This document shows, one piece after another, positions 40,521 through 64,000 of a stretch of 64,000 nt of DNA (position 1 is the first letter of the stretch; each line of letters opens with the position of its first letter). The stretch lies in the IMG/VR virus record IMGVR_UViG_3300026097_000001. One strand, 5' to 3'. Both the position numbers and the translations under genes were made by a program. The notes beneath the pieces were generated by a model that was not told the origin of the DNA, ran no database searches, and saw only the letters and a program-made list of their open reading frames with translations. The stretch comes from a virus. Its lineage: Duplodnaviria; Heunggongvirae; Uroviricota; Caudoviricetes.

Positions 40521-42215
40521 TTATGCCTCGCAAGCTGCACAATCATCAGACATTACACGTTTACGAGTCAAAGACTGTGCTGCAGACATGGAGTAGCTAT
40601 AGTACAGACTCTTTACGCCAACGCCATGAGCATATAGATACAGCTGATTGATTTCTTTTACCGACATGTCAGGATCCAACATTAGGTTCAAACTCTGACC
40701 TTGGTCGATGTATTCCTGGCGAACGCCTGCTTGGTCTACGATGGTATATGGATTAATCTCAGAGAAGGTCTTAAACACTTCTTTTTCTTCCTGTGTAAGG
40801 AACTCAAGATGTTGAACGGAACCATCGCGGTTCTTGATTGACTCCCACGTATCGAGGTTATCCTTACCCTTTTCTTGAAGCAACTTCGTAAGATAAGGGT
40901 TCTTAATCGTAACCTTAATCTTTGCAAGATCCTTTACATATGCGTTCGAGAACTCTGGTTCGATAGACTGAGATACTTGACCAAGGATAAAGCTACTTGA
41001 CTTTGTAGGTGCGATAGCCATCGTTGTTGTGTTACGCATACCGTAACCTTCTAGTAACGGAGCTTCACCAAGGATCTCGGCTAACTGTCTTGACGCAGCA
41101 TGCGATCTCTCACGAAGGTTTTTCGCAATCTCTAGGTTCTTTTGCGCTGCTTCTTTTGACTCAAAAGGAATCATTTTTGACTGTAGGTATGAATGCCAGC
41201 CAAGGATACCTGCGCCAAGAGCCCTGTGATTGATAGCAAAATCACGAGCGCGTTTCATATAGATCTGACCCTCAGTCTTATTGATAAATTCCTGACATAC
41301 CGTGTCAAGGAACATAGTAAGTACTTCAATCGCGTCGGTCTCTTTGATCTCGTCCCAATGCAAAACGTTAAGAGACGATAGTACACATGTAAAGGTTTCA
41401 TCTACACTCGATGGCAGAGCGATCTCAGCACACATATTTGATGCGTGAATATCCATACCCTTGTCTTTATAGACCTGCGGTTTATTGTTGTTTACGTTAC
41501 CTTTGTATAGGATATAAGGAAAACCAATCTCAGAACGGCGCTGAAGTACCTTTGCCCACAGAGATCTTTTTTCTCCGTCTCCGGATTTCATATCTTCAAT
41601 GAATTGGTCCGAAACAGTAATACCGGTCGTTAGACCCTGGATAGGGTTACCTTCCGTACCGATGTCTAGGAACTCGCTTGCGTCAGGATGTTCAATATCT
41701 TGATACGCAGCAAAGAAGCCACGACGGACGGATCCTTGCGAAACTACAGAAGCAAGCGTATCATACATCTGCATAAAGTGAACAGAGCCAGATGATTCTC
41801 CTTGGTCTTTGATTGGAGCTCCTCTTTCACGAACAGCTCCAAAGTAGCCAGATGTTCCACCACCATTCTTCATGAGCATGCCGTTTTCAGCGTGGCCAAA
41901 TAGAATGGACTGCATACTATCATCAATAAACGATCCAAAACAAGAAACTGGTAGTCCTCGTTCCTTACCATAGTTAGCCCAGATTGGAGACGCTAGAGAA
42001 TAAAATCCTCTTGCCATGTAGTCATAGAACTTGTCTGCAAACCCATCAAACTTGCTTCCTGCTTCAGGAGTCGCAGCCATATCCTTAAGGTACTGCTCTG
42101 CTTTGTCTGCGATCTCACGTATACGACCTTCAGGAGTTTCACCGTTGTCAGTATCAATATATCCTCGTGACAAAAATGTGCGTGAGTCTTCGTTTAGCCA
42201 ATAAAATTTTTCCAT
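40521..42215 (-). CDS. nrdA: ribonucleotide reductase class I large subunit lacking an ATP-cone
   Basis: 564 aa; no N-terminal ATP-cone; conserved RNR alpha core; C-terminal CAACEA redox tail. Confidence 0.8.
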   Translation of the reverse strand: MEKFYWLNEDSRTFLSRGYIDTDNGETPEGRIREIADKAEQYLKDMAATPEAGSKFDGFADKFYDYMARGFYSLASPIWANYGKERGLPVSCFGSFIDDSMQSILFGHAENGMLMKNGGGTSGYFGAVRERGAPIKDQGESSGSVHFMQMYDTLASVVSQGSVRRGFFAAYQDIEHPDASEFLDIGTEGNPIQGLTTGITVSDQFIEDMKSGDGEKRSLWAKVLQRRSEIGFPYILYKGNVNNNKPQVYKDKGMDIHASNMCAEIALPSSVDETFTCVLSSLNVLHWDEIKETDAIEVLTMFLDTVCQEFINKTEGQIYMKRARDFAINHRALGAGILGWHSYLQSKMIPFESKEAAQKNLEIAKNLRERSHAASRQLAEILGEAPLLEGYGMRNTTTMAIAPTKSSSFILGQVSQSIEPEFSNAYVKDLAKIKVTIKNPYLTKLLQEKGKDNLDTWESIKNRDGSVQHLEFLTQEEKEVFKTFSEINPYTIVDQAGVRQEYIDQGQSLNLMLDPDMSVKEINQLYLYAHGVGVKSLYYSYSMSAAQSLTRKRVMSDDCAACEA

Positions 42216-51427: not shown

Positions 51428-51735
51428 TTCATTAACTTCTTTATTGTTGATAACGCTTTTTTGCCATCGGGGTGGTTTGGATTAATACTTACAGTTTCAC
51501 CATTTACAAAGTCTGATATATTTGCCGCTTTACCAAGATCTTTGATTGCTTTGTGTAGCGGATCCTTTGGATCAAAAGTAGTCTCAAAGTTTGGCTTACC
51601 ACGTAACTCGACCCAACTCTTTTCTTTGGTATCCCACATCTTAAGTACACCCATATTCTTATCACGAATATACTTGAGCTTTACACCCTCTGAAATATAT
51701 TGTTTAAATCTAACCACCGAACTCGTGTCCTGCAA
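51424..51735 (-). CDS. hypothetical protein
   Basis: 103-aa ORF. Confidence 0.3.
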   Translation of the reverse strand: MQDTSSVVRFKQYISEGVKLKYIRDKNMGVLKMWDTKEKSWVELRGKPNFETTFDPKDPLHKAIKDLGKAANISDFVNGETVSINPNHPDGKKALSTIKKLMK

Positions 51736-52036
51736 CGCGTTTCATCTGTTTGGTAAACTCTTTAAAGGAAGGCTTTTTCTTATATAGTTTAATAGTAAGG
51801 TGTGCTTTATCTTTACCCTTAATGCGCCAGTTCATACCTTTTTCTTTATGTTCAGGTTTTGTGGTTTTAACGACTCTACGTTTGTAACCATCTTCCCATG
51901 TTTCCGAACCTTCGGCCAGCGCAATCGCAGTTTTACATTTTCCGCAACATTGCGAAGTTCCGCAGTTTGGGTGCCCTTCTTCTAATCTTGGTATTTTTGA
52001 CATACTTTGTAAATGTTCTTTAAATGATTTCATCAT
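51710..52036 (-). CDS. hypothetical Cys-cluster basic protein
   Basis: 108 aa; CGTSQCCGKCK. Confidence 0.3.
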   Translation of the reverse strand: MMKSFKEHLQSMSKIPRLEEGHPNCGTSQCCGKCKTAIALAEGSETWEDGYKRRVVKTTKPEHKEKGMNWRIKGKDKAHLTIKLYKKKPSFKEFTKQMKRVAGHEFGG

Positions 52037-54290
52037 GCTTTACGATATACAATTTACCGTCCTCTGTTCTTATTCTTGCTCTCCCAGTTTCATCATCAGT
52101 ACCAACAAAGGTACCTTCTAATGTTTCGGAATTTCCAGTCACATAGTTATGAATAAATTTTACTTTATCGCCACGATGTATATTTGCATCTAATGCAGCT
52201 TCTTCAAGGTCTTGCCCGGGTGTATCTTTTTTATACTTTTTAGTTAAACTATCAGTTCCCCATTCTCTTTCTGATGGAGAGTCCTCTTTTTGTTCAGCTT
52301 TGTAACCGTACTTCTTTAAAAGCTGTTTTCGCTGTAAAGGATTACGTGTCATAGTTGCAGGTTCACCGTACTTTTTCTTGTATTCGGTCTCAAGTTTGCG
52401 AGCCGGTATACCAATGTTCGAAAGAGTAACGATTTGATTTATTATATCCCCAAGGCTTTCACCTTTTGAAACATGATTGTGTATTTTTTCAAGAACTTTA
52501 TTTAACATAGTTTGTTCATCTAAGCTTGAGAATTCTTCCTTCTCTTTATCTGTCAAACTAAATTGTTCCTTTCTAACTTTTGCTGCAAGGTCTTTATCTG
52601 CTTTACCCCAGGTTCCTTTTCCTTTGGTAGCAAATGAATTGACTCTTGCTAATCCCCATTGTGTTGGGGTTGTTCCTGGCCTGTGGCCAGTTCTCCAAGC
52701 AGCGACTCCACGATCAAAGACCTTCTTTAGAATACCATACGATATTCCAGTCTTTTCCGCCTTTTTCTTTAGAGCTTTTTTCGATTCTGTTAGATCGTCA
52801 AAATCTTCTGACATTAAGAAGTCTTCAAAATCTTTTGAGAAATTTAAGATATCATTTATATCATTGTTTAAATCTTCGCCCACCTGTTCTTTAGATTTAA
52901 ATATCTTAAATCGTTTATCAAACTTAACAGCGCCGGTTTTTTCTAAAGCCATGTGAGGTCTTTTTCGAACCGTCATATCTGCCTTTGCGGCTTCGCCAAA
53001 CATATCTTTAAACTTTTTCGTATGAACAGAAGGTTTTGTCTTTGCATCTTTATCGCCAGGGGCTGGTTTATATGCAGCAGGATTATCATCGTCCATCTTA
53101 CCATACTTTTTAAAGTGGCGAGCGCGATCGTCTTTCTTATCCTTATCTACACCTTTATAGTATCCCTTTGGCTGAGATCCTGGCATATCCTTTACATCAG
53201 GATCCTGAGGCTTTTTGGATCTTGATTCCATAAATACTTCAAACATTGCATCTGTACTATATTTTTCTTCATTCTTTTTTGGATTTAAAACACCAGCAAG
53301 ACGTTCTTTTTCTGCTTTTCTAACCTTTGGAAGAAGGCGAGTTGCAATTCTGTCTATTACTCTGCCAGGAATCTTTTGTAATCTTTTGTCTAGCGTAATC
53401 TTTTCGGCTGTAGACATTTCGGAATATTTTTTATTCTTTGATAGTCTATTTCTCATAAAGTTTAATGCTTGTTTACGCGATCTCTTTAACAACTTATCCT
53501 TAGGAGCCATCTTTCTCTTTGATCTCTCACGTGACATCTTAATCTTGGTCTTATACTTACGCATAGTCAAGGCTCTTTTTCTTCTCTGCTGAATTGAGAG
53601 AGGAGCTCTTTCCTCAAGATCTTCTTCTTGTAAATCAAGTTCTTCAGTTATGTTCATTCCTTTACGGACCATATTCATAACCGCTGTTGCAGTACCTTTT
53701 AGTTTTTTAGGCAGGCCTTGCTTAAATAGTCCGATGTCGCCAGCTTTTGCCGCTGCTCTCATTTTTGATGCAGACATGCCGGTTACGCCTTCAGAGTCAG
53801 GATCTCTTTCTCCAGCTGAAACTATTTCAATGTTTTCGAACGTATAGTCGAGTTCGTTATACTTTTTCAATAGAGTTTCAAACTCTTTGACTCTATCGGA
53901 TCCTACGACCAATACAAACTTGTCATATCTCTTTGACAGTTCTTTAGCAACTTCAATGATCGTTCGAGCCGAAGATCTCTTTACAATTTTGCCGAATGCC
54001 TTTTGGCCGAGTTTAACCTTTTGTTCGTATGATAGTGGATTCTTCTTTGCATCCTGAGAATGAGACATATATACCGCGGCATCAGCCTTGCGCTTTACAG
54101 CTTCCGTGATAACTCTGTTCACTAACTTTTCATGACCAACCGTGATTGGATTGAAACGACCAAAACTTATAACGACGGTCTTATTCGTAGCCTCATTCAT
54201 GACTGGTTCTACTTCTATATACTGAGAAGGATCGTGTTCCTTGACCTTCTTGGAATTCTTTTTCTTTTTATCATTTTCTTTTTCGACCAT
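52020..54290 (-). CDS. chimeric protein: N-terminal HxGH nucleotidyltransferase domain (PPAT/TagD-like) fused to a ~580-aa Lys/Arg-rich region
   Basis: 756 aa; residues ~40-200 have FGRFNPITVGHEKL (HxGH) and GVTGMSASKMR (ISxTxIR); the rest is highly basic low-complexity; a TATAAATA box sits 33 nt upstream. Confidence 0.55.
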   Translation of the reverse strand: MVEKENDKKKKNSKKVKEHDPSQYIEVEPVMNEATNKTVVISFGRFNPITVGHEKLVNRVITEAVKRKADAAVYMSHSQDAKKNPLSYEQKVKLGQKAFGKIVKRSSARTIIEVAKELSKRYDKFVLVVGSDRVKEFETLLKKYNELDYTFENIEIVSAGERDPDSEGVTGMSASKMRAAAKAGDIGLFKQGLPKKLKGTATAVMNMVRKGMNITEELDLQEEDLEERAPLSIQQRRKRALTMRKYKTKIKMSRERSKRKMAPKDKLLKRSRKQALNFMRNRLSKNKKYSEMSTAEKITLDKRLQKIPGRVIDRIATRLLPKVRKAEKERLAGVLNPKKNEEKYSTDAMFEVFMESRSKKPQDPDVKDMPGSQPKGYYKGVDKDKKDDRARHFKKYGKMDDDNPAAYKPAPGDKDAKTKPSVHTKKFKDMFGEAAKADMTVRKRPHMALEKTGAVKFDKRFKIFKSKEQVGEDLNNDINDILNFSKDFEDFLMSEDFDDLTESKKALKKKAEKTGISYGILKKVFDRGVAAWRTGHRPGTTPTQWGLARVNSFATKGKGTWGKADKDLAAKVRKEQFSLTDKEKEEFSSLDEQTMLNKVLEKIHNHVSKGESLGDIINQIVTLSNIGIPARKLETEYKKKYGEPATMTRNPLQRKQLLKKYGYKAEQKEDSPSEREWGTDSLTKKYKKDTPGQDLEEAALDANIHRGDKVKFIHNYVTGNSETLEGTFVGTDDETGRARIRTEDGKLYIVKHDEII

Positions 54291-54322
54291 GAAGTGTCTC
54301 CGGATTTCATGTTATTTTATTG

Positions 54323-54330
54323 TATTTATA
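54323..54330 (-). promoter_or_regulatory. T4-late-type promoter box TATAAATA
   Basis: Exact TATAAATA on the minus strand 33 nt upstream of the 756-aa gene start. Confidence 0.4.
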
Positions 54331-54333
54331 ATA

Positions 54334-54894
54334 TTAGCTTCTTAGTTCAAAATTATCCTTTGAGAAAAAGTTATCCATACAATACTGCTTTTCAACTGGA
54401 TAATCATGAGGGCAGGCCCTTTCTCTTTTACCCTGTGGATCTGTAAATGTCGCAGATTCTTTCCAATCGAAACCATATACCGTAACCATCTTTGGATCGC
54501 ACGTAGAGATGTAATCTAAAGTAATCAAACCCGTTGTAGGATTGGCATGTTTTCCTGCTTTTAACTTTAGTGGTTTGTATAGAGAATCTGGGTACACAAA
54601 ATCTACTTTACTTAGATTATTATGAGATCTACCCTGATGGCCAGCGTGAACCTTTTTTATGTTATTTGCAATCTTTGGGAACTGCATTTTGTATTCTGAA
54701 GTATTCCAAAAGAACCATACGTCTGTTCTTTTTCCATGGCTCTTTATTGCGTCCTTACGTGTGTATAACACGGCGGCTTTATTTAACCGCACTACAATAT
54801 CATGAGAGTCTATCTCTTCACCATATTCTCTATCAAATAATGATATTGCATTGCCAATCACAGCAACCGTTTTATTTTCAAACCATTCTTTCAT
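54334..54894 (-). CDS. GT29-like (sialyltransferase-motif) glycosyltransferase, paralogue 1
   Basis: 186 aa; L-motif KTVAVIGNAISL...GEEIDSHDIVVRLNKA and S-motif PTTGLITLDYISTCDPKMVTVYGFDW. Confidence 0.55.
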   Translation of the reverse strand: MKEWFENKTVAVIGNAISLFDREYGEEIDSHDIVVRLNKAAVLYTRKDAIKSHGKRTDVWFFWNTSEYKMQFPKIANNIKKVHAGHQGRSHNNLSKVDFVYPDSLYKPLKLKAGKHANPTTGLITLDYISTCDPKMVTVYGFDWKESATFTDPQGKRERACPHDYPVEKQYCMDNFFSKDNFELRS

Positions 54895-55400
54895 TTTCTT
54901 AGTTCAAATACCTTATCTTTATTTTGAAAGAATCTTTCTCTGCAATAGTTTCTTTCGAGAGGAAAATTGTGGCGATCCTCCTTTAATTGTTTATTATGAA
55001 ACGATGGAGTTTGTTTCCAATCATAACCATATACATAAACCTTCTTAGGATCGTATAATGATATAAGATGTAATATTCTTAAACCAGTCGAAGGACGATG
55101 ATGGCCGAGATCTTCTTTTAACCATTCTATGTCAATCTCTTTGTGATGAAGTATTTCTACGATATGATCGCACGATTTATTAGTAACTCTACTCGGCTTC
55201 ATAGTTTTAAACCAGTTTAAAAACCACACATCAGTCCTTTCGCCGTGAGACTTTACATCCTTAGGCTGCAACATAAAGAACCCACGTTTTATTCTACATA
55301 CCACATCAGCAGAATCTATTTCACTCCCATAATCTTTTTCAAAAAGACTCTTTGCATTACCTACTACCGCAACGGTCTTACCTTCAAAAACTTCCTTCAT
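54891..55400 (-). CDS. GT29-like (sialyltransferase-motif) glycosyltransferase, paralogue 2
   Basis: 169 aa; KTVAVVGNAKSL...GSEIDSADVVCRIKRG and PSTGLRILHLISLYDPKKVYVYGYDW. Confidence 0.55.
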   Translation of the reverse strand: MKEVFEGKTVAVVGNAKSLFEKDYGSEIDSADVVCRIKRGFFMLQPKDVKSHGERTDVWFLNWFKTMKPSRVTNKSCDHIVEILHHKEIDIEWLKEDLGHHRPSTGLRILHLISLYDPKKVYVYGYDWKQTPSFHNKQLKEDRHNFPLERNYCRERFFQNKDKVFELRK

Positions 55401-55406
55401 ATTATC

Positions 55407-56084
55407 CTAGAGACCGTGTTGTTGACTATAATCCATATAGATGCGTTCTCTATGCCATTCGTCTGCCATAGGAGTCGTTGCGAAATCGTGGAAACATGGA
55501 GTACCTAGAGTATAGTGTAGCAACTTTGCATCCGGGTTTGCACCAAACTCGTCAGGCAACCAGTTCCATTCAATCGGAAGTTCACCGATCTCATTATCAG
55601 GCAACCAACTAAATCTATGTACCTTTGCGCCGGTTGCGTTCTGAACAAAATCTGGAGTAACAACGCTATTTCCAGGATGTGCACAGTTCCAGAGTATTAC
55701 GCTCGACCAGTTTTTACGAGGATAGTCTTCGTTCTTTGCACCAAGGTACTTCTCCTTCATGCGAGTCTTATAATCGTGCTTTACTACCATCACGGCCTTC
55801 GAGTCATCACGCATTTCCCAAAGTTTTGCGATATCGTCTCGAAATATCATATCACCATCTACGAACAGTGCCCAGCCCTTGTATCCCATTAGATGAGGAA
55901 TAAGAAACCTACTGTATATGAAATGGTTGCTTCCATCCGTATGCTTCTCTTCATAACCCTTTAAAAGGTTGAGTGATAGCGGATTGATGCTTACCGGTTC
56001 AGATGAATTTCTTATGATAGAATTGGAACATACGTGATATGCTGTTGCCTCTCTCACATCGTATCCCATAAACACTGGTATCAT
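55407..56084 (-). CDS. glycosyltransferase family 8 (LPS alpha-1,2/1,3 hexosyltransferase-like)
   Basis: 225 aa; FIYSRFLIPHLMGYKGWALFVDGDMIFRDDIAKLWEM (GT8 DxD region). Confidence 0.6.
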   Translation of the reverse strand: MIPVFMGYDVREATAYHVCSNSIIRNSSEPVSINPLSLNLLKGYEEKHTDGSNHFIYSRFLIPHLMGYKGWALFVDGDMIFRDDIAKLWEMRDDSKAVMVVKHDYKTRMKEKYLGAKNEDYPRKNWSSVILWNCAHPGNSVVTPDFVQNATGAKVHRFSWLPDNEIGELPIEWNWLPDEFGANPDAKLLHYTLGTPCFHDFATTPMADEWHRERIYMDYSQQHGL

Positions 56085-56623
56085 TGTTTCTTTTTCCTTC
56101 TGCTATTCATTATATCTATCGTTAAGTTTTTTATTAGTATATCTTTAGGTTGATCCATTAACCACTTGATTGTGTTTGCGATATAATCAGTTTCTATTCG
56201 AGGGTATTCTCTTCTATGATCCGTCATTGGAGTATTCATTCTTCCGAGTTTTAAATGAATGATCTTGCAACTCGTATCAATAAGTTGCAGCTGCAGGCAG
56301 GTTTTTTCTAACGCAGCCTTATGAATAGCATATTCATTAACCGCATCCCTGTTGCCATCAGCGCTCACGCTCCCAACATTAATTACCGTGCAATCTCTAT
56401 ATTTATTTTTTTCAAACAACTTATATAAAAGAGTAGTCTGCGAATAATCATGGTATGCATTGTTTATGTATACGTCAAAATCATCAACTAAGAATGTATC
56501 TAGGTCTTTGCTTAAATCATATCCGTTTTGTCTACTTAAACCGACTACTTCATGATCTTTTGATAAAATATTATATAAAGTTTTACCAAGACCGCTTGTA
56601 TGTCCTGTAATCACTATCTTCAT
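56081..56623 (-). CDS. short-chain dehydrogenase/reductase-like Rossmann protein
   Basis: 180 aa; N-terminal MKIVITGHTSGLGKTL glycine-rich NAD(P) motif. Confidence 0.5.
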   Translation of the reverse strand: MKIVITGHTSGLGKTLYNILSKDHEVVGLSRQNGYDLSKDLDTFLVDDFDVYINNAYHDYSQTTLLYKLFEKNKYRDCTVINVGSVSADGNRDAVNEYAIHKAALEKTCLQLQLIDTSCKIIHLKLGRMNTPMTDHRREYPRIETDYIANTIKWLMDQPKDILIKNLTIDIMNSRRKKKQ

Positions 56624-56624
56624 T

Positions 56625-57599
56625 TTATTTTTTATACCTATTCATATCTGCTTCGACCATTTCAGTAATCATACGTTCAAAAGTATATTCCGGCGTCCAA
56701 TCTAGAGTCTTCTTTGCTTTATCAGAGTCGGCATGGAGACTGTGTAGCTCGTTAGGTCTTTCAAACTCCTCGTCACTTACAACATAACTTTCCCAATCGT
56801 TTATACCGACAGTATTAAATGCTACACTACATAGATCACGTACGCTGTGTTTAATTCCCGTCGCAATAATAAAGTCTTCTGGCTTTTCTTGTTGCATCAT
56901 TAACCACTGTGCACGAACGTAGTCTTCAGCGTGACCCCAATCGCGTTCGGCATCAAGGTTTCCAAGAACCACCTTATCCTGTAAACCGTTCTTAATTCTT
57001 GCTACTCCATCCGTTATCTTTCTTGAAACAAATTCAATTCCGCGTATCGGCGACTCGTGATTAAATAGCAATCCAGTACAGGCATACGCATCGTAACTCT
57101 CACGATAGTTTTTAGTAATATGATATCCGTATAGTTTAGCGATACCGTATGGACTTACCGGCTCAAAGGGAGTCTTTTCATTCTGTCTTCCATCTATATT
57201 ACTGTTTCCAAACATTTCGCTGGTGCCCGCTTGGTAAAACTTTGTATCCGGTTTAATACGACGAATTGCTTCTAGACAGTTTAACGGGCCGAGCGCATCA
57301 ACGTGAGTGGTTACATACGCAAGTCTCCAAGAACCTCCAACAAAGCTCTGGGCTGCTAGGTTATAGAGTTCGTCTGGTTGCACTATCTCCATTACATCCA
57401 TCATACTGCAAGGATCCGTAACATCCCCAACGATTGTTTTTAAACCTTTATTGAAAAGATCTAGGTACTCGATGTTATTCCAGTTTGGACTACTATATCT
57501 TTTAACGAGACCATAAACATCATACCCTTTTTCTAATAATAGTTTACCAAGATAGCAGGCATCTTGTCCAGGAAATCCTGTAATTAAAGCGGTCTTCAT
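56625..57599 (-). CDS. gmd: GDP-mannose 4,6-dehydratase
   Basis: 324 aa; ALITGFPGQDACYLGKLLLEKGYDVYG, YNLAAQSFV, TSEMFG and the YGIAKL active-site region match Gmd along the full length. Confidence 0.85.
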   Translation of the reverse strand: MKTALITGFPGQDACYLGKLLLEKGYDVYGLVKRYSSPNWNNIEYLDLFNKGLKTIVGDVTDPCSMMDVMEIVQPDELYNLAAQSFVGGSWRLAYVTTHVDALGPLNCLEAIRRIKPDTKFYQAGTSEMFGNSNIDGRQNEKTPFEPVSPYGIAKLYGYHITKNYRESYDAYACTGLLFNHESPIRGIEFVSRKITDGVARIKNGLQDKVVLGNLDAERDWGHAEDYVRAQWLMMQQEKPEDFIIATGIKHSVRDLCSVAFNTVGINDWESYVVSDEEFERPNELHSLHADSDKAKKTLDWTPEYTFERMITEMVEADMNRYKK

Positions 57600-58774
57600 T
57601 TTATATTCCTTATTACATCTGCTACCATATCGATCTTTTCAGAGAGATCGACACAATCGTTTCCTATAAAGAAACCGTCGTAATGAAGCTTATCGGTTCC
57701 TTCAAAGGTTCCACTACTGTCCCAGTTTAATCTATCTATCACTGGGTTCTTCATAAAGTTACCTGCAACGATTGGTCGTGTTTCTACACCATTCGCCGTG
57801 AGTTCCTCGATTACTTTCTTTCTTTTGCCGGCAAGATCGTCCTCGAGGATCAATCCAAAACCAAACCAGCTACTCTTTTCGTGCTCTACTTGAAGTCTTA
57901 TGTTAGGAACATCAGCAAAGACCTTCTTGGCGACCTCGGCGTTCTTTCTTCGATCTATCATCATCTGAGGCCACTTTTTGAGCTGTTCTTGGCCGATCGC
58001 ACCACTCATCTCAAGAGGGCGTACGCAATAGCCTGGAAGTATAAACTTAAAGCTGTCTTCAAACGGATCACCGGACTTTTTAAACAATGGATCGTCAGAT
58101 GTACTATCCCTTAACCAACCGTGAGCTCTTAGGCTCTTTAGGTACTCGTAGGTCGTATCATCGTTCGTAAGAACCATGCCACCTTCCATAGTCTGCATGT
58201 GGTGGCTAAAGAAGAAACTAAACGTTCCCATCTCGCCGATAGATCCACAGTGCCTGTCGTATTCAAGCGCACCTAGACTCTCACAGTTATCTTCAAGCAA
58301 TGTGATATCCTTTGCATCACATATCTGTTTTAATCTCTTGAGCTCGGCGGGGTTACCTAGAAGGTTAACAACAAAGACGGCCGCGGTATCTTCATCGATC
58401 GCTTCTTCTACAGCTTTAGGATCTATGTTAAATGTATATGGATCCACGTCAACGAACCGCAGAGTATATCCCCACTGATGAACAGGGAAGTATGTTGTAC
58501 TCCAACTCACGGCAGGTACGATTATGTTTCCCTTATTCTTATACTTTGGATTCAATGCAAGCGCCGCTATTGTAATCAGATTGGCGCTGCTACCGCTATT
58601 CGTCATAACGGCATACTTACTTCCAAAGAACTCAGCAAACTGTTCTTCGTATCTTTTTACTTCTTCACCCATCGTATACTTACCACTTGCGATTACACGA
58701 TGAATAGCACTAACTTCTTCATCACCCCAAGTATCACTTGCTAATCTATATTTCACGGGAACTTTCCTTTCCAT
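57596..58774 (-). CDS. DegT/DnrJ/EryC1-family sugar aminotransferase (perosamine-synthase-like)
   Basis: DegT-family conservation (DTWGDEEVSAIHRVIASGKYTMGEEV..., TNSGSSANLI); start trimmed to the internal Met MERKVPV because the 52-aa extension in the track ORF looks spurious. Confidence 0.7.
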   Translation of the reverse strand: MERKVPVKYRLASDTWGDEEVSAIHRVIASGKYTMGEEVKRYEEQFAEFFGSKYAVMTNSGSSANLITIAALALNPKYKNKGNIIVPAVSWSTTYFPVHQWGYTLRFVDVDPYTFNIDPKAVEEAIDEDTAAVFVVNLLGNPAELKRLKQICDAKDITLLEDNCESLGALEYDRHCGSIGEMGTFSFFFSHHMQTMEGGMVLTNDDTTYEYLKSLRAHGWLRDSTSDDPLFKKSGDPFEDSFKFILPGYCVRPLEMSGAIGQEQLKKWPQMMIDRRKNAEVAKKVFADVPNIRLQVEHEKSSWFGFGLILEDDLAGKRKKVIEELTANGVETRPIVAGNFMKNPVIDRLNWDSSGTFEGTDKLHYDGFFIGNDCVDLSEKIDMVADVIRNIK

Positions 58775-59640
58775 TGTATAACACTGTTTAAATATTCGAA
58801 TGTTTTTAAATCCTGTGCCTCGCCGATTGTATATTGGCCGTGCGCAAGACTTTGAAAGAGTGGCATTCTTTCTTTCTCTGTAAGATTTTCTATTTGGCTT
58901 ATCGAATGTGAAAGTGGAAACGCTGGGCAAAACTTGTCACATATAACCGGTACTCCCATTCTTAAGGCGTCTAACGCAGCAGAACTGTTATATGCGACAA
59001 CACAGTATGCGTCTTCAAAAGCTTCTTCGAGGCTCTCTTCGTATTTTGGTTTACCTTTTACTTTTTTTGGATTAATTAACAGATTGTCAATAGTATCACC
59101 GGGTTTTCTTCTTACGATAATAGGTCTATTCGTATACTTTCTTATTTCGTTAATTATATTTTGTTCCCAAGCTAGCTTATCAAAAACTTTGGCAACTACA
59201 TTGCTTGGAGGGAGAATAACGATATTTTGCTTATCCTTAAAATTATAATCTCTAAACTCTAGATCAAAGTTGGTTTCAAATCTCTCTTTACTTACATTCG
59301 GGATAATTGCATTTTGAGCAAACCCGTTCTTTGTAATTCTCATCCAGCACGGGCCGTTATAACCTTTACTAAAGTATGCGTGATCTATGTAATAAAAATC
59401 TACATGGCGCTTCCTTGCCATCTCAAAAAGATGGGCATTTCCACGAAGAATACCCGAAAAAATAATCGCCTTAGCCCGAGGAGGAATGCCCTTCTTTATA
59501 ACTTTTTCTGGCAATGTTCCGTTTGGTTTCTGCACTGATATGAGATGCCGCGTATGTACTATCTTTGCTCCACACGCAGACCCAAACGCTTTTACATAGC
59601 GATCCTGCTCTCTTTTACCTGATAAAAAAGCATATATCAT
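58753..59640 (-). CDS. TagF/KpsS-like GT-B transferase (CDP-alcohol or CMP-sugar dependent)
   Basis: 295 aa; C-terminal YCVVAYNSSAALDALRMGVPVICD resembles the TagF-family motif; paralogous to 60997..62016. Confidence 0.4.
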   Translation of the reverse strand: MIYAFLSGKREQDRYVKAFGSACGAKIVHTRHLISVQKPNGTLPEKVIKKGIPPRAKAIIFSGILRGNAHLFEMARKRHVDFYYIDHAYFSKGYNGPCWMRITKNGFAQNAIIPNVSKERFETNFDLEFRDYNFKDKQNIVILPPSNVVAKVFDKLAWEQNIINEIRKYTNRPIIVRRKPGDTIDNLLINPKKVKGKPKYEESLEEAFEDAYCVVAYNSSAALDALRMGVPVICDKFCPAFPLSHSISQIENLTEKERMPLFQSLAHGQYTIGEAQDLKTFEYLNSVIQWKGKFP

Positions 59641-59644
59641 TATA

Positions 59645-60433
59645 TTACCTTACATTATTCCAATATTGATTTTTTCTTTTTACAATCAGGTCGCCTTTAT
59701 GGCTGGTACCCTTCTTTTTTCGAGGGCCTTTCATATGATCCATAAATTCTCCAAGAGGTCCATTGATAAAGGGGTGGTTATTTTTAATAGAAGGACTCAG
59801 GTTGTGCCAGTGTTTTGGATCAAACCTTTTCATGGCATCGTCATACGTATGACAGTCGGTCCAATTTTCTAGACCAAAGATACTATCGTCTAGGTAGTAT
59901 TTCTTCCATGCATTTAAAAAGTCCTTGGCAATCTCGTGGTTCATATTAAAGATATGAAAGCCGGTTTCGGTATACATCCATGGGCGCGCAAGGTATCCTG
60001 CAAACTTTTCATTTGGGCACCAGTTGCCAATGTCACTTCTCTGAACCGGAGAGTGCGTTCTACTATCGCCATCTAACCACACGAGGATGTCGGTTTCATT
60101 TTCTTCTAGGAATTGAAATAAGGCGAAAACTTTATGACTAAACCTTACAGCATCGAAGCGATAATTTTTTTTACCATTTGTTGCGTGTCTACCTAACCCG
60201 TTTGCCTCAGGATTGTTTTTATGTCTCTCTTTAAATGATAAAAGATCCTTATGATCTAGGATTTTATATTGTACTCTCGGATCTCTTATCAGATCCTTCT
60301 TTGGTATCGGGTCATCAACATAGACGGTTAAATAAGTATCCTTTGGCCAGTTTTCTATGAACCCTCTTACTAATAAGCCACCGGTCTCTTTCCATCCTTG
60401 GAGGCTATAACACGTTACTGCATTTATCCGCAT
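59645..60433 (-). CDS. hypothetical glycan-island protein
   Basis: 262 aa, Trp/His-rich; operon context only. Confidence 0.3.
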   Translation of the reverse strand: MRINAVTCYSLQGWKETGGLLVRGFIENWPKDTYLTVYVDDPIPKKDLIRDPRVQYKILDHKDLLSFKERHKNNPEANGLGRHATNGKKNYRFDAVRFSHKVFALFQFLEENETDILVWLDGDSRTHSPVQRSDIGNWCPNEKFAGYLARPWMYTETGFHIFNMNHEIAKDFLNAWKKYYLDDSIFGLENWTDCHTYDDAMKRFDPKHWHNLSPSIKNNHPFINGPLGEFMDHMKGPRKKKGTSHKGDLIVKRKNQYWNNVR

Positions 60434-60996
60434 GGCAAATCCTTTCTATCAAACACCAGGCCGCGTATTTTTACAAATTGTTGTCTGTCTTTTCTTATTT
60501 CGTTGTTCATTAAAGTAACCGACGCACCTCTCACAGCCATAGTTTCTTTTAGATTAATATCAAACCCATACTCTTTAAATACCTTTACCCAATAGATCTC
60601 AGTCTGCTCGTTGACGTGATTCTTTCCACCCCAAAATGGAGGTGCGGCCGTAAGAATTACTCTCTTACACTTTTGAAAATCTTTCATAAAGATTGGAATA
60701 CACTTTTCTTCAACGTGTTCAACGAACTCTACGCTCCAACCGAGATCAAAATCAATATCAAAGTCTGATGAACCTATTCTATAATCAACCTGCTGAAAGT
60801 TATTTGATTTTGGTGTTTCGTTTGTACCGTCTACGCCATACGCATTGATACCAAGCTTTAACGCTTCCAATACTTGACCGCCTGTACCGCATCCAATATC
60901 AATCATAGTCTTTACGTTCCATTTTTCTTTCGCATATCTCAGCGCTTCAATGTCAACGTTTGTACCACCGCCGTGTTGTTTTTCTTTAAAATCCAC
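60424..60996 (-). CDS. class I SAM-dependent methyltransferase
   Basis: 190 aa; motif I MIDIGCGTGGQVLEAL. Confidence 0.6.
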   Translation of the reverse strand: MDFKEKQHGGGTNVDIEALRYAKEKWNVKTMIDIGCGTGGQVLEALKLGINAYGVDGTNETPKSNNFQQVDYRIGSSDFDIDFDLGWSVEFVEHVEEKCIPIFMKDFQKCKRVILTAAPPFWGGKNHVNEQTEIYWVKVFKEYGFDINLKETMAVRGASVTLMNNEIRKDRQQFVKIRGLVFDRKDLPCG

Positions 60997-62016
60997 TTAT
61001 GAATACTTTCTTATTAATTTTTCCACGTAATAGGATGCTTGCCCAGTTTCAAAATAGGTCGTTGGGATCTCGGTGCAAGACATATTTTTTACCCACCTAA
61101 GGACTTCTTTTTTTGATGCAAGATATGGATTATTTATAGTATTTAAATTTGTATTATTTAAGTCTCTTCCAAAGTTTTCATCTGCACAGTACGTTGGTAT
61201 GCCTGCGTCTATTAACTCAAATATACTAGTTGAATTGTTAATTACTGCACAGTACATATCTTCATACATTTCTCTAATATTTTGCTTTGAACTTAAAAAC
61301 TTTATATTCTTATACTTTTTTGTTAAGTATTGATATTCTTTTTGCATTTTACTTGCAGGATGAATTTTAATTTTTATTCTTCTTTCGGTATGCTTTCTTA
61401 TAGTTTTTATGGAGCTTTCTAAAAATTCGTTTATTGGCATAGTACTCGTTGGATCTATCTCAAGACCGGTGAATATGTATATAGAACCACATTTATTTAC
61501 ATTCCAAGAATGATCATACAAACGTTCAGCATTTATTGTTCTAAGTATATTAAAATCTTCTGGAGTTAACCACTTTCCATGTTCATATACCCAACTGTCT
61601 AAAGAAATTCTTATGTTTGCTTTGTGGTCTGTTTTACGGTAATTATCTTCGGCTCTTGATATCGTTCTACTCTCAAAGACGACGATCTTTTTGTCATGTT
61701 TTCTTGCCAGATCTACCCAGTGCGAATTTAAAACGTCCAAGACAGCGCTTCTTAACTTATATTTCTGTTGTAATTCGCCGCTTGATACTCTATCGTATGA
61801 AAAATCTGGAGGGATATGAAGTTGCTTTCTTAAATCACTGCCCCACGTACCATTTAACACAATTGCATCAGCATCGTAAAAATAGTTCATATACTCCTGT
61901 GGAATAAAATCTTTATCTTTAATCTTAAATTCGTTAAAGTAACTTATGGATGGGCTGTCTGTCATCCTTGCGAATTTTTCGGTAGATCTAGATGTCACTG
62001 AAACGAAATATTTCAA
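60997..62016 (-). CDS. TagF/KpsS-like GT-B transferase, second paralogue
   Basis: 339 aa; C-terminal YCAVINNSTSIFELIDAGIPTYCAD homologous to the same region of 58753..59640. Confidence 0.4.
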   Translation of the reverse strand: MKYFVSVTSRSTEKFARMTDSPSISYFNEFKIKDKDFIPQEYMNYFYDADAIVLNGTWGSDLRKQLHIPPDFSYDRVSSGELQQKYKLRSAVLDVLNSHWVDLARKHDKKIVVFESRTISRAEDNYRKTDHKANIRISLDSWVYEHGKWLTPEDFNILRTINAERLYDHSWNVNKCGSIYIFTGLEIDPTSTMPINEFLESSIKTIRKHTERRIKIKIHPASKMQKEYQYLTKKYKNIKFLSSKQNIREMYEDMYCAVINNSTSIFELIDAGIPTYCADENFGRDLNNTNLNTINNPYLASKKEVLRWVKNMSCTEIPTTYFETGQASYYVEKLIRKYS

Positions 62017-62570
62017 AGTTTATTCTCCTTAGATCCACGAAGGATAAAATTATCTCTATTGAAAAAGTTCTGATAACAATATTCTTTTTCTTCGCTAAAA
62101 ACGTGGGCAACGCACTTTCTTTTTTCGTGCCAAGAATATGTTTCTTTCCAGTCAAAACCGTAGACGTGTACGCTCTTTGGATCCTGCTTAGAAATGTAAT
62201 AGAGGACTCTGAGCCCGGTCGAAGATTTCTTTGTTAGGTTGCTGTCAAGATCTATTCTATCCTCTTCAGAAAAGACTGTATCAGCCATTTCTATAAACTC
62301 AGGAGATACGCTTGTGGTATCCATCTGCATCTTAAGAACACCTTTGTTGTGAGCGGTATTAAAATGCGCTTTGTTCTGTCGAATGTTTTGCATACACCAT
62401 ACGTCGATACGCGATCCCATCTGCTTCCTATATTGAGGAAACCGATACCCACCGCGATTGATCCTTACGACTACGTCCGCAGTGTCTATCTCATTGCCAT
62501 ATCTCTGTTGTATGAGAGACGCCGCGTTGCCAACTACCGCAACCGTCTTTCCTTCAAACCATTCTTTCAT
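62013..62570 (-). CDS. GT29-like (sialyltransferase-motif) glycosyltransferase, paralogue 3
   Basis: 185 aa; KTVAVVGNAASL...GNEIDTADVVVRINRG and SSTGLRVLYYISKQDPKSVHVYGFDW. Confidence 0.55.
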   Translation of the reverse strand: MKEWFEGKTVAVVGNAASLIQQRYGNEIDTADVVVRINRGGYRFPQYRKQMGSRIDVWCMQNIRQNKAHFNTAHNKGVLKMQMDTTSVSPEFIEMADTVFSEEDRIDLDSNLTKKSSTGLRVLYYISKQDPKSVHVYGFDWKETYSWHEKRKCVAHVFSEEKEYCYQNFFNRDNFILRGSKENKL

Positions 62571-62590
62571 TTACTTAACCGCTAATAATA

Positions 62591-62620
62591 AAGATAATAA
62601 AAAAGGAGGCCTGAGCCTCC
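62591..62620 (-). terminator. rho-independent terminator
   Basis: Minus strand GGAGGC-TCAG-GCCTCC followed by TTTTTTATTATCTTTATT; only ~35 nt before the first glycan-island gene. Confidence 0.6.
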
Positions 62621-62649
62621 CTATATTTATCAAATGTTGTAGAGTAGAT

Positions 62650-62847
62650 CTACTGTAGTTTTTTCATTTCAAGGATGCAGTTCTTAGCTGCTTTATGATA
62701 GCCCAAGCGGGTTAATTCAGAGGCAGATCTTGCATATCCTGCTATCATAAATGCATTGTTTATCTTGGCCAAGAATTTTTTAAACAAAGAAGGTCTTGAC
62801 GCCGGTATATGAATTGTTTCTGTATAAAAAGCCATAATTACACCCAA
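62650..62847 (-). CDS. hypothetical protein
   Basis: 65-aa ORF. Confidence 0.3.
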   Translation of the reverse strand: MGVIMAFYTETIHIPASRPSLFKKFLAKINNAFMIAGYARSASELTRLGYHKAAKNCILEMKKLQ

Positions 62848-63092
62848 CCTTTTAGGTTACGGTTTACTTTTGTGCTTGGATATTCTCTATGAAATTTTTC
62901 ATTTGCAATAGCATAGATATCCCCACGTGAGATACCCATATCATTGAGTTCGCGGTTTGATAGAGATGATAGTTCGCTGATTGTTTTATTAACTTGCTTT
63001 CTGTGTTGATAGTAACTTACCAAACCTGAGAAGATATTGGATACGAAAGAAAAGTCAAAGAGTGCTTTTGTATTTTGTAATGTGTGGCTCAT
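62838..63092 (-). CDS. hypothetical protein
   Basis: 84-aa ORF; its translation start is embedded in the 63095-63147 hairpin. Confidence 0.3.
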   Translation of the reverse strand: MSHTLQNTKALFDFSFVSNIFSGLVSYYQHRKQVNKTISELSSLSNRELNDMGISRGDIYAIANEKFHREYPSTKVNRNLKGWV

Positions 63093-63094
63093 GT

Positions 63095-63147
63095 GTGTTC
63101 TCCTTAAAGGGTTTCTGTATTACAGAACTATTTATTAAGGAGAACAC
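63095..63147 (-). promoter_or_regulatory. RBS-sequestering hairpin with AATAAATA box at the 5' arm/loop junction
   Basis: 13-bp perfect IR gtgttctccttaa/ttaaggagaacac with a 27-nt loop that itself holds a 7-bp palindrome ttctgta/tacagaa; the 3' arm carries SD AAGGAG 7 nt before the ATG of 62838..63092. Confidence 0.55.
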
Positions 63148-63217
63148 GAAAAATTGGTAAATAACCATTACCAGTTTGGAATAGCCGTTATTCGTCTAGG
63201 GAAACTGTGACATTGTG

Positions 63218-64000
63218 TCAGCGAGTAATCTCTTCCCAATCCATAGAAGCAAAAATATCTTCGTCATTAGTTCCAGCAGCGACCAAAAATGTAAGCGGCT
63301 CTGAAACTCCGGTAAACGAATCTCTTTCTAGCTGAAACTTAAATACCGCTTCTTTTAAGATATCCAACGTAGGCGAACCTTGATTTGATGAATTCAAATA
63401 CCCCTGTGCAAGAACTCTACCACCACCATCGTGCGCGGTTCCAGCTAGGGTATATTCGACTGAGGAATCAGAACCGGCACTCGTCCAAGAAGCTGTTGTT
63501 ACTGCGCCTCCTGCAACAATTCTCCATGAAAAGTTTACACCGTTACCAACACCCAACAAAGATACCGCAGTTAAGATAGCTATTGCATCCTGTCTTGCGG
63601 ACTTCAGTCTAATTGAGACGACGGGGTAATATGTTCCTGCATCGTCCAAAGCGTATGAACTTGTGATTGGAGTTCCAACGGCGTGCTGCCTGCCTCTCAA
63701 TTCATAACCGCCTTCGCTAATAACGGTGCTACAAATTTGTTTTGCTTGACTTGCACTAGAAGTGGCACCCGTGTTTGTTATTTCTTGTCTTATTGGTAAA
63801 GATGCGGTTGTCATGTACGTTGATTCAATTAAATTTGCATGATGAAACGCGTGACAAGGAATAAACTGGCCGTTGATTGCAAAACCAAAACGCACGCTAC
63901 CGACACCCAACCATTCAAAATCTACCCACATGAGTTGAACCTTAGTCAGATCTAAAGTTACGCCACTTGGGCCTGTGCCATCTAACGAGTCAACATTCCA
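63218..64000 (-). CDS. Gly/Thr/Ser-rich structural protein, 5' end beyond the window
   Basis: The reading frame stays open to the window edge upstream of the listed Met; beta-rich composition typical of virion proteins. Confidence 0.35.
   Translation of the reverse strand, partial: WNVDSLDGTGPSGVTLDLTKVQLMWVDFEWLGVGSVRFGFAINGQFIPCHAFHHANLIESTYMTTASLPIRQEITNTGATSSASQAKQICSTVISEGGYELRGRQHAVGTPITSSYALDDAGTYYPVVSIRLKSARQDAIAILTAVSLLGVGNGVNFSWRIVAGGAVTTASWTSAGSDSSVEYTLAGTAHDGGGRVLAQGYLNSSNQGSPTLDILKEAVFKFQLERDSFTGVSEPLTFLVAAGTNDEDIFASMDWEEITR

Follow-up and report, generated by a model that had tools for sequence, protein, structure and literature searches.

The window analysed here (the whole stretch of DNA, 64 kb of a genome of roughly 180–200 kb) derives from an uncultured marine T4-like myovirus, in which a cassette with three GT29 genes is located in a variable island. 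The GT29 reading frames lie exactly where an earlier note on this DNA had placed them (Table 1), in an interval (54334–62570) that contains 11 genes, all on the minus strand, rather than the 14-gene operon described in that note. The genes are as tightly coupled as reported, with overlaps of 4–22 nt or gaps of 0–6 nt throughout. In a minus-strand scan of 51500–63300, the top-scoring terminator-like site is a hairpin outside the cassette and no such site was found inside it; the hairpin is likely to mark the start of a new transcription unit. A hydropathy check detected TM segments in none of the cassette proteins, and the cassette genes include no initiating transferase, flippase or exporter. 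The cassette lies in the structural region of the genome and directly adjoins a virion structural gene (63218–63931), and a giant collagen-like fibre is encoded within the window. The downstream neighbour, which matches phrog_3041/395 ('cytidyltransferase'), adjoins the cassette in all relatives and marks its insertion site; any functional tie between the two is putative.

Table 1. Features of the GT29 cassette and its borders
Feature	Position	Strand	Remarks
Conserved downstream neighbour, 756-aa HxGH nucleotidyltransferase + DUF5824 protein	52020..54290	-	PF01467 + PF19141
GT29A, short GT29 glycosyltransferase, 186 aa	54334..54894	-	PF00777 48.2 bits; most widely conserved copy; always beside CTP_transf_like gene
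GT29B, short GT29 glycosyltransferase, 169 aa	54891..55400	-	PF00777 39.7 bits; own orthologue clade, 69–78% identity
GT8-family retaining glycosyltransferase, 225 aa	55407..56084	-	PF01501 32.7 bits (cut-off 24.3); phrog_28018 E 8e-40
Short SDR, 180 aa	56081..56623	-	Weak adh_short / Epimerase matches
Gmd, GDP-mannose 4,6-dehydratase	56625..57599	-	TIGR01472 367 bits, E 8e-110
ColD, GDP-4-keto-6-deoxy-D-mannose 3-dehydratase, 392 aa	57596..58774	-	phmmer vs 2GMS
p295, beta-Kdo-transferase-like fold (KpsC/WbbB type)	58753..59640	-	Fold
p262, GT-A (GT2-like) glycosyltransferase candidate	59645..60433	-	Invariant D121-x-D123
SAM-dependent methyltransferase, 190 aa	60424..60996	-	Methyltransf_11 21.7 bits (cut-off 21.2), Methyltransf_23
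p339, p295 paralogue, beta-Kdo-transferase-like (KpsC/KpsS-type) GT-B protein	60997..62016	-	C-terminal half homologous to p295 family
GT29C, short prokaryotic-type GT29 glycosyltransferase, 185 aa, first cassette gene	62013..62570	-	PF00777 46.0 bits; H-x4-E kept
Terminator-like hairpin	62603..62622	-	8-bp stem then T-run; just upstream of cassette

All three GT29 proteins score above the gathering cut-off of Pfam Glyco_transf_29 (PF00777; 23 bits), with E values of 1e-12 to 5e-10. They are diverged paralogues in one co-directional phage glycan cassette, as the note had described, with pairwise identities of 41–45% and 55 invariant alignment columns. Invariant residues include G14, N15, R36, T121-G122, Y140-G141, H163 and E168, the last two of which are also invariant across 50 diverse homologues. 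The resemblance of the L- and S-sialylmotifs to ST3Gal proved to be real: phmmer aligned the phage segment TVAVIGNAISLFDREYGEEIDSHDIVVRLNKA with a segment of ST3Gal-I (2WNB), and the 50-sequence family profile is colinear with 2WNB across the L, S and VS motifs (E = 9e-11). In the profile alignment H163 lies opposite His274 of the 2WNB chain (His319 in full-length numbering), which aligns the VS-motif His of the phage proteins with the ST3Gal-I catalytic base. Motif III (HYWE) shows no clear conservation, and GT29A has no His there. The proteins are genuine GT29 members with the GT-A-variant sialyltransferase fold and CMP-binding L and S motifs. Their nearest structures are mammalian sialyltransferases; GT42 CstI/CstII and the Maf (DUF115) CMP-nonulosonate transferases are clearly weaker structural matches and give no sequence-profile match. 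Compared with the mammalian enzymes (ST3Gal-I 2WNB/2WNF, ST6GalNAc2, ST6Gal1 and ST8SiaIII), the phage proteins are ∼100 residues shorter, share ∼20% identity and lack the stem, TM region (maximum 19-residue hydropathy ≤0.61) and conserved disulfide; they are cytoplasmic, whereas the mammalian enzymes are Golgi-lumenal. All three are apparently intact enzymes. Each has an orthologue group of its own, maintained over many contigs at about 60–90% identity (63–91% in the GT29C clade), which argues for function.

The view of GT29 as essentially eukaryotic, taken in the earlier note, is outdated. Bacterial GT29 proteins without a TM domain or an L–S disulfide have been reported, mostly from marine alpha-proteobacteria (Petit et al., 2018, Sci Rep 8:2946; PMC5811610), and we recovered 58 bacterial loci with the same short type; a 'minimal core' is thus what prokaryotic GT29 proteins normally look like and is not peculiar to phages. 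Bacterial relatives at 25–35% identity occur in Paracoccus, Rhizobium, Loktanella, Dongia and others, the short length is common to the whole prokaryotic family, and the form is abundant in metagenomes and occurs in at least 230 IMG/VR stretches. In a rough NJ tree the phage proteins form their own clades nested within the bacterial diversity. Like the phage proteins, prokaryotic GT29-like proteins (e.g. that of Loktanella) are short and soluble, carry sialylmotifs L, S and VS and have a polysaccharide-locus context; the phage set differs in being phage-encoded and in comprising three diverged copies in one operon. Phage occurrence is absent from Petit et al. (2018), and our literature search turned up no description of GT29 in a bacteriophage.

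Two partner genes encode GT-B proteins that had been read as TagF/KpsS-like. p295 has the fold of the retaining beta-Kdo transferases (KpsC/WbbB), as does p339 by homology to p295; TagF is a poor structural match and was rejected for both. Identities to KpsC/KpsS (GT107) and WbbB (GT99) are 12–16%, and neither Pfam Capsule_synth nor HMM-level searches gave a match to p295 or p339. The p295 family is large, phage-specific and, like p339, without any Pfam model. An hhalign comparison with bacterial Capsule_synth domains gave E = 2e-4 at a probability of only 46% and an alignment in which the Q, HP and NS motifs line up; p295 has RKP where its paralogues, p339 among them, have HP. Kdo-transferase-type proteins are recurrent partners of GT29-like genes. 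In bacteria, Capsule_synth accounts for five of the 124 ORFs that neighbour GT29-like genes; the two are directly adjacent at loci L013 and L035 and form a single fusion protein at locus L020.

The TIGR01472 match of Gmd is by far its best, yet it falls below the equivalog cut-off of 415; orthologues carry PF16363. The supposed DegT aminotransferase is a ColD 3-dehydratase, matching E. coli ColD (2GMS) over its full length (phmmer E = 1.4e-117), with the His of an 'SHH' motif replacing the PLP Lys; its best NCBIfam match is RfbH. Its orthologues are called at 386–392 aa, and its start is probably the internal ATG, the 444-aa TTG ORF being over-extended. With this identification, Gmd and ColD would make a GDP-3,6-dideoxyhexose, and the short SDR, whose gene always follows Gmd–ColD in relatives, is a candidate 4-ketoreductase for finishing it. 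Gmd and ColD, with the active-site His, are shared with the GDP-colitose pathway (Gmd, ColD and ColC) of E. coli O55/O111 and similar O-antigens; the cassette has a classical-type SDR in place of ColC (Fcl-like, ∼300 aa), so the final sugar may not be colitose. The GT8 gene co-occurs with GT29 in divergent phages, and some relatives have a 301-aa p295-like gene in place of the methyltransferase. p262, previously listed as an unknown gene, is a GT2-like DxD protein: the 'WLDGDS' motif is invariant in its family, eight of whose 18 members have weak Glycos_transf_2 matches (best E = 3e-4), and comparison with PDB sequences gave no match.

The explanation that we favour, at a little better than an even chance, is that the 11 genes are a co-transcribed, wholly cytoplasmic assembly cassette for an acidic Kdo-containing glycan, and that the resulting glycan remodels the surface of the infected cell. 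GT29A, GT29B and GT29C would be active inverting transferases using a CMP-activated 2-keto-3-deoxy (ulosonic) acid, each specific for an acceptor or linkage of its own. With the KpsC/S-like enzymes as partners, they would assemble an acidic oligosaccharide that contains Kdo and bears further decorations: a GDP-derived 3,6-dideoxyhexose (through Gmd, ColD and then the SDR), a hexose added by the GT8 and O-methylation. The acceptor would be a lipid or polysaccharide of the host envelope, and assembly would take place on the cytoplasmic side of the membrane. We infer both donor and target. By guilt by association, the donor is most likely to be CMP-beta-Kdo taken from the pool that KdsB of the Gram-negative host maintains. 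Such a supply would account for a cassette without CMP-sugar synthesis genes; the search for a CMP-sugar synthetase or NeuB-like gene proposed in the earlier note found no KdsB/NeuA/NeuB-type gene in the window, nor is there one among the 25 commonest neighbour families listed for 15 bacterial and 16 viral loci. The availability of CMP-Kdo in the host is an assumption; the phage RNR and helicase are not cyanophage-like. With no initiating transferase, flippase or exporter in the cassette, the acceptor and biological role are guesses. A precedent for the Kdo donor is the plant GT29 member RCKT1/MGP2, for which genetic evidence points to a role as an inverting CMP-beta-Kdo transferase (PMC11288761). 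RCKT1/MGP2 is a Golgi type-II membrane protein, unlike the phage proteins, and its Kdo role is supported genetically and chemotypically, not enzymatically.

There is a modest chance that the three proteins are instead true sialyl- or nonulosonate transferases, in which case the glycan would receive a nonulosonic acid cap. The donor (CMP-Neu5Ac, CMP-Kdn, CMP-legionaminic acid or CMP-pseudaminic acid) would come from the host or from phage genes elsewhere. Every biochemically characterized GT29 uses CMP-sialic acids, the structural resemblance and the conserved CMP-binding motifs and catalytic His point the same way, and the window covers about one third of the genome. However, NeuA/NeuB/NeuC, Pse or Leg genes were found neither in the window nor among the commonest neighbour families of the 15 bacterial and 16 viral loci, the recurrent partners are of the Kdo-transferase type, and the plant protein shows that the family is not limited to sialic acids. 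An ulosonate-capped glycan, as suggested earlier, fits these data, whereas the nonulosonate (sialic acid) donor also suggested lacks support in the gene content; where the mammalian enzymes take sialic acid, the phage proteins probably use another donor. It is unlikely, if conceivable, that the same enzymes serve the virion, with capsid, tail or fibre proteins being glycosylated in the cytoplasm while still unassembled. The adjoining structural gene, the collagen-like fibre, the soluble cytoplasmic enzymes and the lack of lipid-linked initiation, flippase and export genes in the cassette all suit a virion target, but KpsC/KpsS-type enzymes, which function in group 2 capsule synthesis, act on lipid acceptors, bacterial GT29-like genes sit in polysaccharide loci and no protein-glycosylating enzyme type (e.g. 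Maf-like) was identified.

Two further readings concern the chemistry of the GT29 proteins. They might be phosphotransferases that reuse the CMP-leaving-group site for non-glycosyl transfer. Their substrate would be a CDP-activated alcohol from the adjacent PF01467 nucleotidyltransferase, and the outcome a decoration resembling teichoic acid. CMP is also released in CDP-alcohol phosphotransfer, the gene immediately downstream of GT29A is always the CTP_transf_like gene, and PF01467 recurs with six members from the 16 divergent viral loci. This is nevertheless very improbable: the nucleotidyltransferase occurs in 566 phage records without GT29, so that the two may be neighbours simply because they share an insertion hotspot; the N-domain of the nucleotidyltransferase is only weakly PPAT-like and not TagD-like; the partner proteins match TagF poorly; and neither GT29 nor GT42 offers a precedent. 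We find it equally hard to credit that one or more copies are catalytically dead paralogues acting as a scaffold or carbohydrate-binding subunit. The degenerate motif III, especially in GT29A, and the missing ∼100 residues would be in keeping with this, but N15, R36, T121-G122, H163 and E168 are kept in all three copies, each copy is conserved as its own orthologue group and the short length is that of the prokaryotic family.

The earlier observation is confirmed and its interpretation partly supported. Bacterial GT29 relatives have been known since 2018; what is new is that phages carry GT29 and that its gene partners point to Kdo, not sialic acid, as the sugar.

Three minus-strand open reading frames of 186, 169 and 185 residues encode the short proteins GT29A, GT29B and GT29C (A, B and C below), which were assigned to GT29, the family that holds all animal sialyltransferases. 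All three exceed the gathering score of 23 bits for Pfam PF00777 (Glyco_transf_29), with 48.2, 39.7 and 46.0 bits, respectively, and the outcome favors GT29 over placement in an unrelated family; the matches lie chiefly in the L-motif half. The proteins share 41-45% pairwise identity, with 55 positions invariant in all three. The L motif, a CMP-binding Rossmann segment of the form xxVVGN...IDxxDxVxRxN, pairs residue by residue with that of pig ST3Gal-I in a single-sequence search of the PDB; among 50 homologues G14, N15 and R36 never vary and N38 hardly does. The S motif, P(S/T)TG...VYG(F/Y), is colinear with PSTG...LYGF of ST3Gal-I (PDB entry 2WNB); its G122 and G141 are invariant in the 50 homologues, as is K145 after the YGF sequence, and W144 is near-invariant. 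A family profile of 50 sequences aligns colinearly with 2WNB in the motif order L, S, VS (E 9e-11) and sets the phage VS sequence aHdfekE opposite VHDGDFE. This motif, H163-x4-E168, is invariant in A, B, C and the 50 homologues. His274 of the 2WNB chain we take to be His319, the catalytic base, by a construct offset of 45 that reportedly comes from Rao et al. in 2009; the same offset turns chain His257 into His302 and is internally consistent. Motif III, of the form (H/Y)-Y-(Y/F/W)-(E/D), shows no clear conservation: tftdpe faces WHHYWE in the profile alignment, and at this position B (SFHN) and C (SWHE) have an aromatic residue followed by His and A has TFTD. The L, S and VS alignments, together with the invariance of H163 and E168, indicate that the sialylmotif similarity claimed in the earlier note is real and far beyond chance, and we regard A, B and C as GT29 members with high confidence. 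No PHROGs or NCBIfam model matched any of the three.

The AlphaFold2 model of A, computed from the family alignment (pLDDT 91.9, pTM 0.90), has a predicted GT-A variant 2 fold for which the nearest solved structures are those of GT29. The top 26 Foldseek matches in the PDB are all mammalian GT29 (ST8SiaIII, ST6GalNAc2, ST3Gal-I and ST6Gal1), and bacterial GT42 Cst-I (10.6) and Maf (9.8) rank behind them in the structure comparison. A, B and C contain no hydrophobic segment, and neither a type II transmembrane anchor nor a stem is present. The disulfide between the L and S motifs is not kept, the L-motif Cys being replaced by Val or Thr and the S-motif Cys not being conserved. Published bacterial GT29 (PMC5811610) likewise lack anchor, stem and disulfide, which are therefore marks of the eukaryotic branch and not of the whole family.

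The view that GT29 is essentially eukaryotic, on which the earlier note relied, does not stand. Petit et al. (2018; PMC5811610) described 23 GT29 sequences of bacterial origin, 19 of them from alpha-proteobacteria, many marine, and all without a transmembrane domain or the disulfide cysteines; phages and viruses are nowhere mentioned in that paper. We recovered 58 GT29-like loci at 25-35% identity from bacterial genomes, including Paracoccus, Rhizobium, Loktanella, Dongia and Mesorhizobium. A search of 1.84 billion representatives gave 2,618 clusters (50% identity) of the short family at E<=1e-3 and 549 at E<=1e-10, with members mostly of 170-230 residues. Together with the bacterial reports, these searches make the 'minimal core', at first taken for a phage peculiarity, the ordinary prokaryotic form. 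At least 230 stretches of IMG/VR viral contigs match GT29. By tblastn, 50,697 deposited phage genomes yielded a single weak match, in an uncultured megaphage, so that the short family is essentially absent from cultured phages; a megablast search with 24 kb found no related phage, and our literature search for GT29 and phages found no paper linking the two. To our knowledge, no function has been established for any prokaryotic GT29, although such sequences have been known since 2018. What is new is the presence, abundance and triplication of prokaryotic-type GT29 in phages.

The three copies fall into separate orthologue clades across contigs (A, 60-90%; B, 69-78%; C, 63-91% identity). B and C are sister clades in a neighbor-joining tree, and viral GT29 is nested within bacterial diversity in a rough tree of this type, rooted on ST3Gal-I as sole outgroup and without bootstrap support, so that the placement is indicative only. 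The constant element among relatives is the A copy adjoining a PF01467 gene; some relatives have only one or two GT29 genes and a methyltransferase, and others lack the Gmd-ColD-SDR block. The site behaves as a variable island, with a structural gene and a YjiS-like gene on one side and a nucleotidyltransferase gene on the other. The YjiS-like gene and its companion small ORF also border the island in loci L062-L066.

The cassette, the co-directional run of glycan genes between an upstream hairpin and the nucleotidyltransferase gene, contains 11 genes, fewer than the 14 first counted; the tight packing described earlier was borne out, with neighbors overlapping by 4-22 nt or standing 0-6 nt apart. 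Transmembrane segments are absent from all 11 proteins. The 262-residue protein p262 has an invariant DxD; eight of 18 members of its family match GT2 weakly, and a sequence search of the PDB with p262 gave no match.

Features of the glycan cassette, its surroundings and the loci compared with it (window coordinates unless a locus is named)
Feature	Coordinates	Strand	Description
YjiS-like (DUF1127) 84-aa gene and ~65-aa small ORF	62640-63092	-	precede hairpin upstream of cassette
Terminator-like hairpin, strong	62622-62603	-	upstream border of cassette
GT29C	62013-62570	-	short GT29
p339	60997-62016	-	KpsC/S-like, via homology to p295
Methyltransferase	60424-60996	-	SAM-dependent
p262	59645-60433	-	GT2-like DxD protein
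p295	58753-59640	-	predicted beta-Kdo-transferase-like fold
ColD	57596-58774	-	3-dehydratase
Gmd	56625-57599	-	GDP-mannose 4,6-dehydratase
SDR	56081-56623	-	short reductase
GT8	55407-56084	-	retaining glycosyltransferase
GT29B	54891-55400	-	short GT29
GT29A	54334-54894	-	short GT29
Nucleotidyltransferase, HxGH (N-terminal PF01467) + DUF5824, 756 aa	52020-54290	-	right-hand neighbor of GT29A
Further GT4-type glycosyltransferase	21081-22034	-	outside cassette
Class I/II aminotransferase (PF00155)	2939-4138	-	outside cassette
Collagen-like tail fiber, 1,738 aa	9531-14747	-	GC-rich stretch
RNR and Dda-type helicase	36204-37307 and 40521-42215		mosaic affinity
Virion protein	63218-63931		mosaic affinity
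PF04230 genes of bacterial loci	L004:6305-7333, L007:8802-9923, L013:8346-9455, L014:8928-9908, L045:8346-9455		pyruvyl transferases

The cassette proteins p295 and p339 (295 and 339 residues) had been read as TagF/KpsS-like, but neither fold nor profile similarity to TagF was detected, and for p295 the TagF reading was rejected on structural comparison. The predicted fold of p295 is instead beta-Kdo-transferase-like, with the modified GT-B architecture of KpsC/WbbB (GT107/GT99), which is extended to p339 through its homology to p295. Both belong, with a 301-residue gene product of relatives, to one large, glycosyltransferase-like phage family that no Pfam model covers. Neither protein matches Pfam Capsule_synth (PF05159) at E<=1, sequence searches of the PDB with both gave no match, and the family HMM matched none of the Capsule_synth neighbor proteins of the bacterial loci. 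An hhalign comparison with bacterial Capsule_synth domains gives E 2e-4 and a probability of 46%, with Q, HP and NS motifs in register; the family Q faces DQ of Capsule_synth, and the HP motif reads KIHP in p339 and RxHP in the family consensus, p295 having RRKP. We treat p295 and p339 as KpsC/KpsS-like in action and claim no family membership. In divergent phages the family occurs as five to six tandem paralogues (L119:8988-14376 and L126:4985-12105), and it is also found fused to GT8 in proteins of ~550 residues (P0463, P0472, P0474 and P0485).

The gene first described as a DegT aminotransferase encodes ColD instead. It matches E. coli ColD (PDB entry 2GMS) over its full length (E 1.4e-117, residues 7-388 paired with 4-389), and in the aligned active sites (fshhmqtmegg against yshhiatmegg) His replaces the PLP-binding Lys. 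The alternative of an aminotransferase that makes an amino sugar, for instance perosamine, was discarded, perosamine synthases matching at only ~1e-28; the best NCBIfam match is RfbH. The longest ColD reading frame (57596-58930, minus strand) opens with TTG and has 444 codons, but orthologues are called at 386-392 residues, so that the internal ATG at 58774 is the probable start; the first 22 nt of the gene then coincide with the end of p295. Gmd matches TIGR01472 over its full length with 367 bits (E 8e-110), far above other models and below the curated cut-off of 415, and its orthologues carry PF16363. By homology, Gmd and ColD would give GDP-4-keto-3,6-dideoxymannose, which the 180-residue SDR probably reduces. 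This SDR is of the classical type, whereas ColC of the colitose pathway is Fcl-like with ~300 residues, so that the 3,6-dideoxyhexose finally made may not be colitose.

The nucleotidyltransferase adjoining GT29A, as it does in all relatives, is extremely basic (net charge ~+48) and Cys-free. Its long form is nearest to those of the Pelagibacter phage HTVC008M and of Methylophilales phages such as Melnitz. As a 'cytidyltransferase' it was considered as a maker of CMP-sugars and dropped, being of the PF01467 HxGH type, only weakly PPAT-like and also occurring in 566 phage records that lack GT29. The window is phage DNA, with RNR, Dda-type helicase, RnlA-like ligase, PhoH, RNase H and thymidylate synthase; GC is 0.47-0.50 in the tail-fiber stretch and ~0.40 elsewhere. 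Contigs of relatives (180-275 kb) carry gp32, gp59, UvsX, gp41 and PebS-type bilin reductase, the last being present in the close relative L062. With its counterpart in cyanophage S-RIM12 the virion protein shares 65% identity; the nearest relatives of RNR come from Staphylococcus and Agrobacterium phages, those of the helicase from phages of Bordetella and Pseudomonas. A firm cyanophage call, based on the virion protein and the PebS-type gene, was withdrawn owing to the non-cyanophage affinities of RNR and helicase; with gp32/UvsX-type relatives and mixed affinities, we call this a marine T4-like myovirus and name no host.

The donor of the GT29 enzymes was approached through gene context. 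In the neighborhoods of 15 diverse GT29-like genes from bacteria, the families met most often are GT4 (seven), Capsule_synth (five) and polysaccharide pyruvyl transferase (five). An uncultured gammaproteobacterial contig (CAVVHS010000006; L020:8135-10684, plus strand) encodes an 849-residue fusion of a KpsC/KpsS-type Capsule_synth domain (residues 404-532) with Glyco_transf_29 (from about residue 599), a natural link between the two enzyme types. In locus L035 a GT2-Capsule_synth protein stands immediately 5' of GT29, and in L013 and L045 Capsule_synth, pyruvyl transferase and GT29 are consecutive. In five alpha-proteobacterial loci the GT29-like gene is directly preceded by a PF04230 pyruvyl transferase, a family that also turns up four times in the vicinity of divergent GT29 genes of phages; the pattern hints at a conserved acidic-glycan module. 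Recurrent partners in 16 divergent viral loci are PF01467, methyltransferases, GT8, GT25, pyruvyl transferases, sulfotransferases and Gmd, and in the phage set GT29, GT8, p295-like and p262-like genes co-occur even at 30-45% identity. No KdsA-, KdsB-, NeuA- or NeuB-type gene was found among window ORFs of at least 150 residues, nor any of KdsB, NeuA or NeuB type among the commonest neighbor families of the 15 bacterial and 16 viral loci. Genetic evidence implicates RCKT1, a GT29 of plants, as an inverting CMP-beta-Kdo transferase (PMC11288761). As the cassette encodes a route to an unusual GDP-sugar and no CMP-sugar step, the simplest reading is that CMP-Kdo comes from the host: five transferases (three GT29 and two KpsC/S-like) would use CMP-Kdo already made by a Gram-negative cell. 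We infer CMP-Kdo as the donor at about even chances; a nonulosonate donor for the GT29 enzymes we consider unlikely. Taken further, the short phage and bacterial GT29 might be cytoplasmic inverting alpha-Kdo/ulosonate transferases working in tandem with KpsC/KpsS-like retaining beta-Kdo transferases, producing a phage-directed, Kdo-rich glycolipid or capsule-like polymer decorated with 3,6-dideoxyhexose during infection, a scheme that we put forward only tentatively.

The cassette encodes neither a phosphoglycosyl transferase for initiation nor a flippase, polymerase or exporter. Since KpsS and KpsC use a lipid acceptor and the bacterial homologues occur in polysaccharide loci, we favor as target an envelope lipid or polysaccharide of the host, modified on the inner side of the membrane. 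Glycosylation of the virion is a serious rival, consistent with the structural genes adjoining the cassette and with the solubility of every cassette enzyme.

The cassette GT29 are thus phage-borne, triplicated members of a known prokaryotic GT29-like family and not a new kind of system; their association with Kdo-transferase-type partners is new and testable. Repeated KpsC/KpsS-type partnering in phages and bacteria, with one natural fusion, makes the CMP-Kdo donor a concrete hypothesis. Short soluble GT29 are common in marine phages, and here three specialized copies are kept in one operon. Expression of these small, cysteine-poor, cytoplasmic proteins in E. coli should be straightforward, which sets them apart from their plant and animal counterparts. 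A complex acidic-glycan pathway, with Kdo-type sugars and a colitose-type 3,6-dideoxyhexose, would be added to the auxiliary functions of marine T4-like phages. If the tandem Kdo scheme is true, Kdo and not sialyl transfer would be the ancestral activity of the family behind the eukaryotic sialyltransferases, and these soluble proteins of 170-186 residues would be the first easily expressed GT29 enzymes with which to test the Kdo-first idea. A known family is extended to a new type of host, and the question of its function is sharpened.
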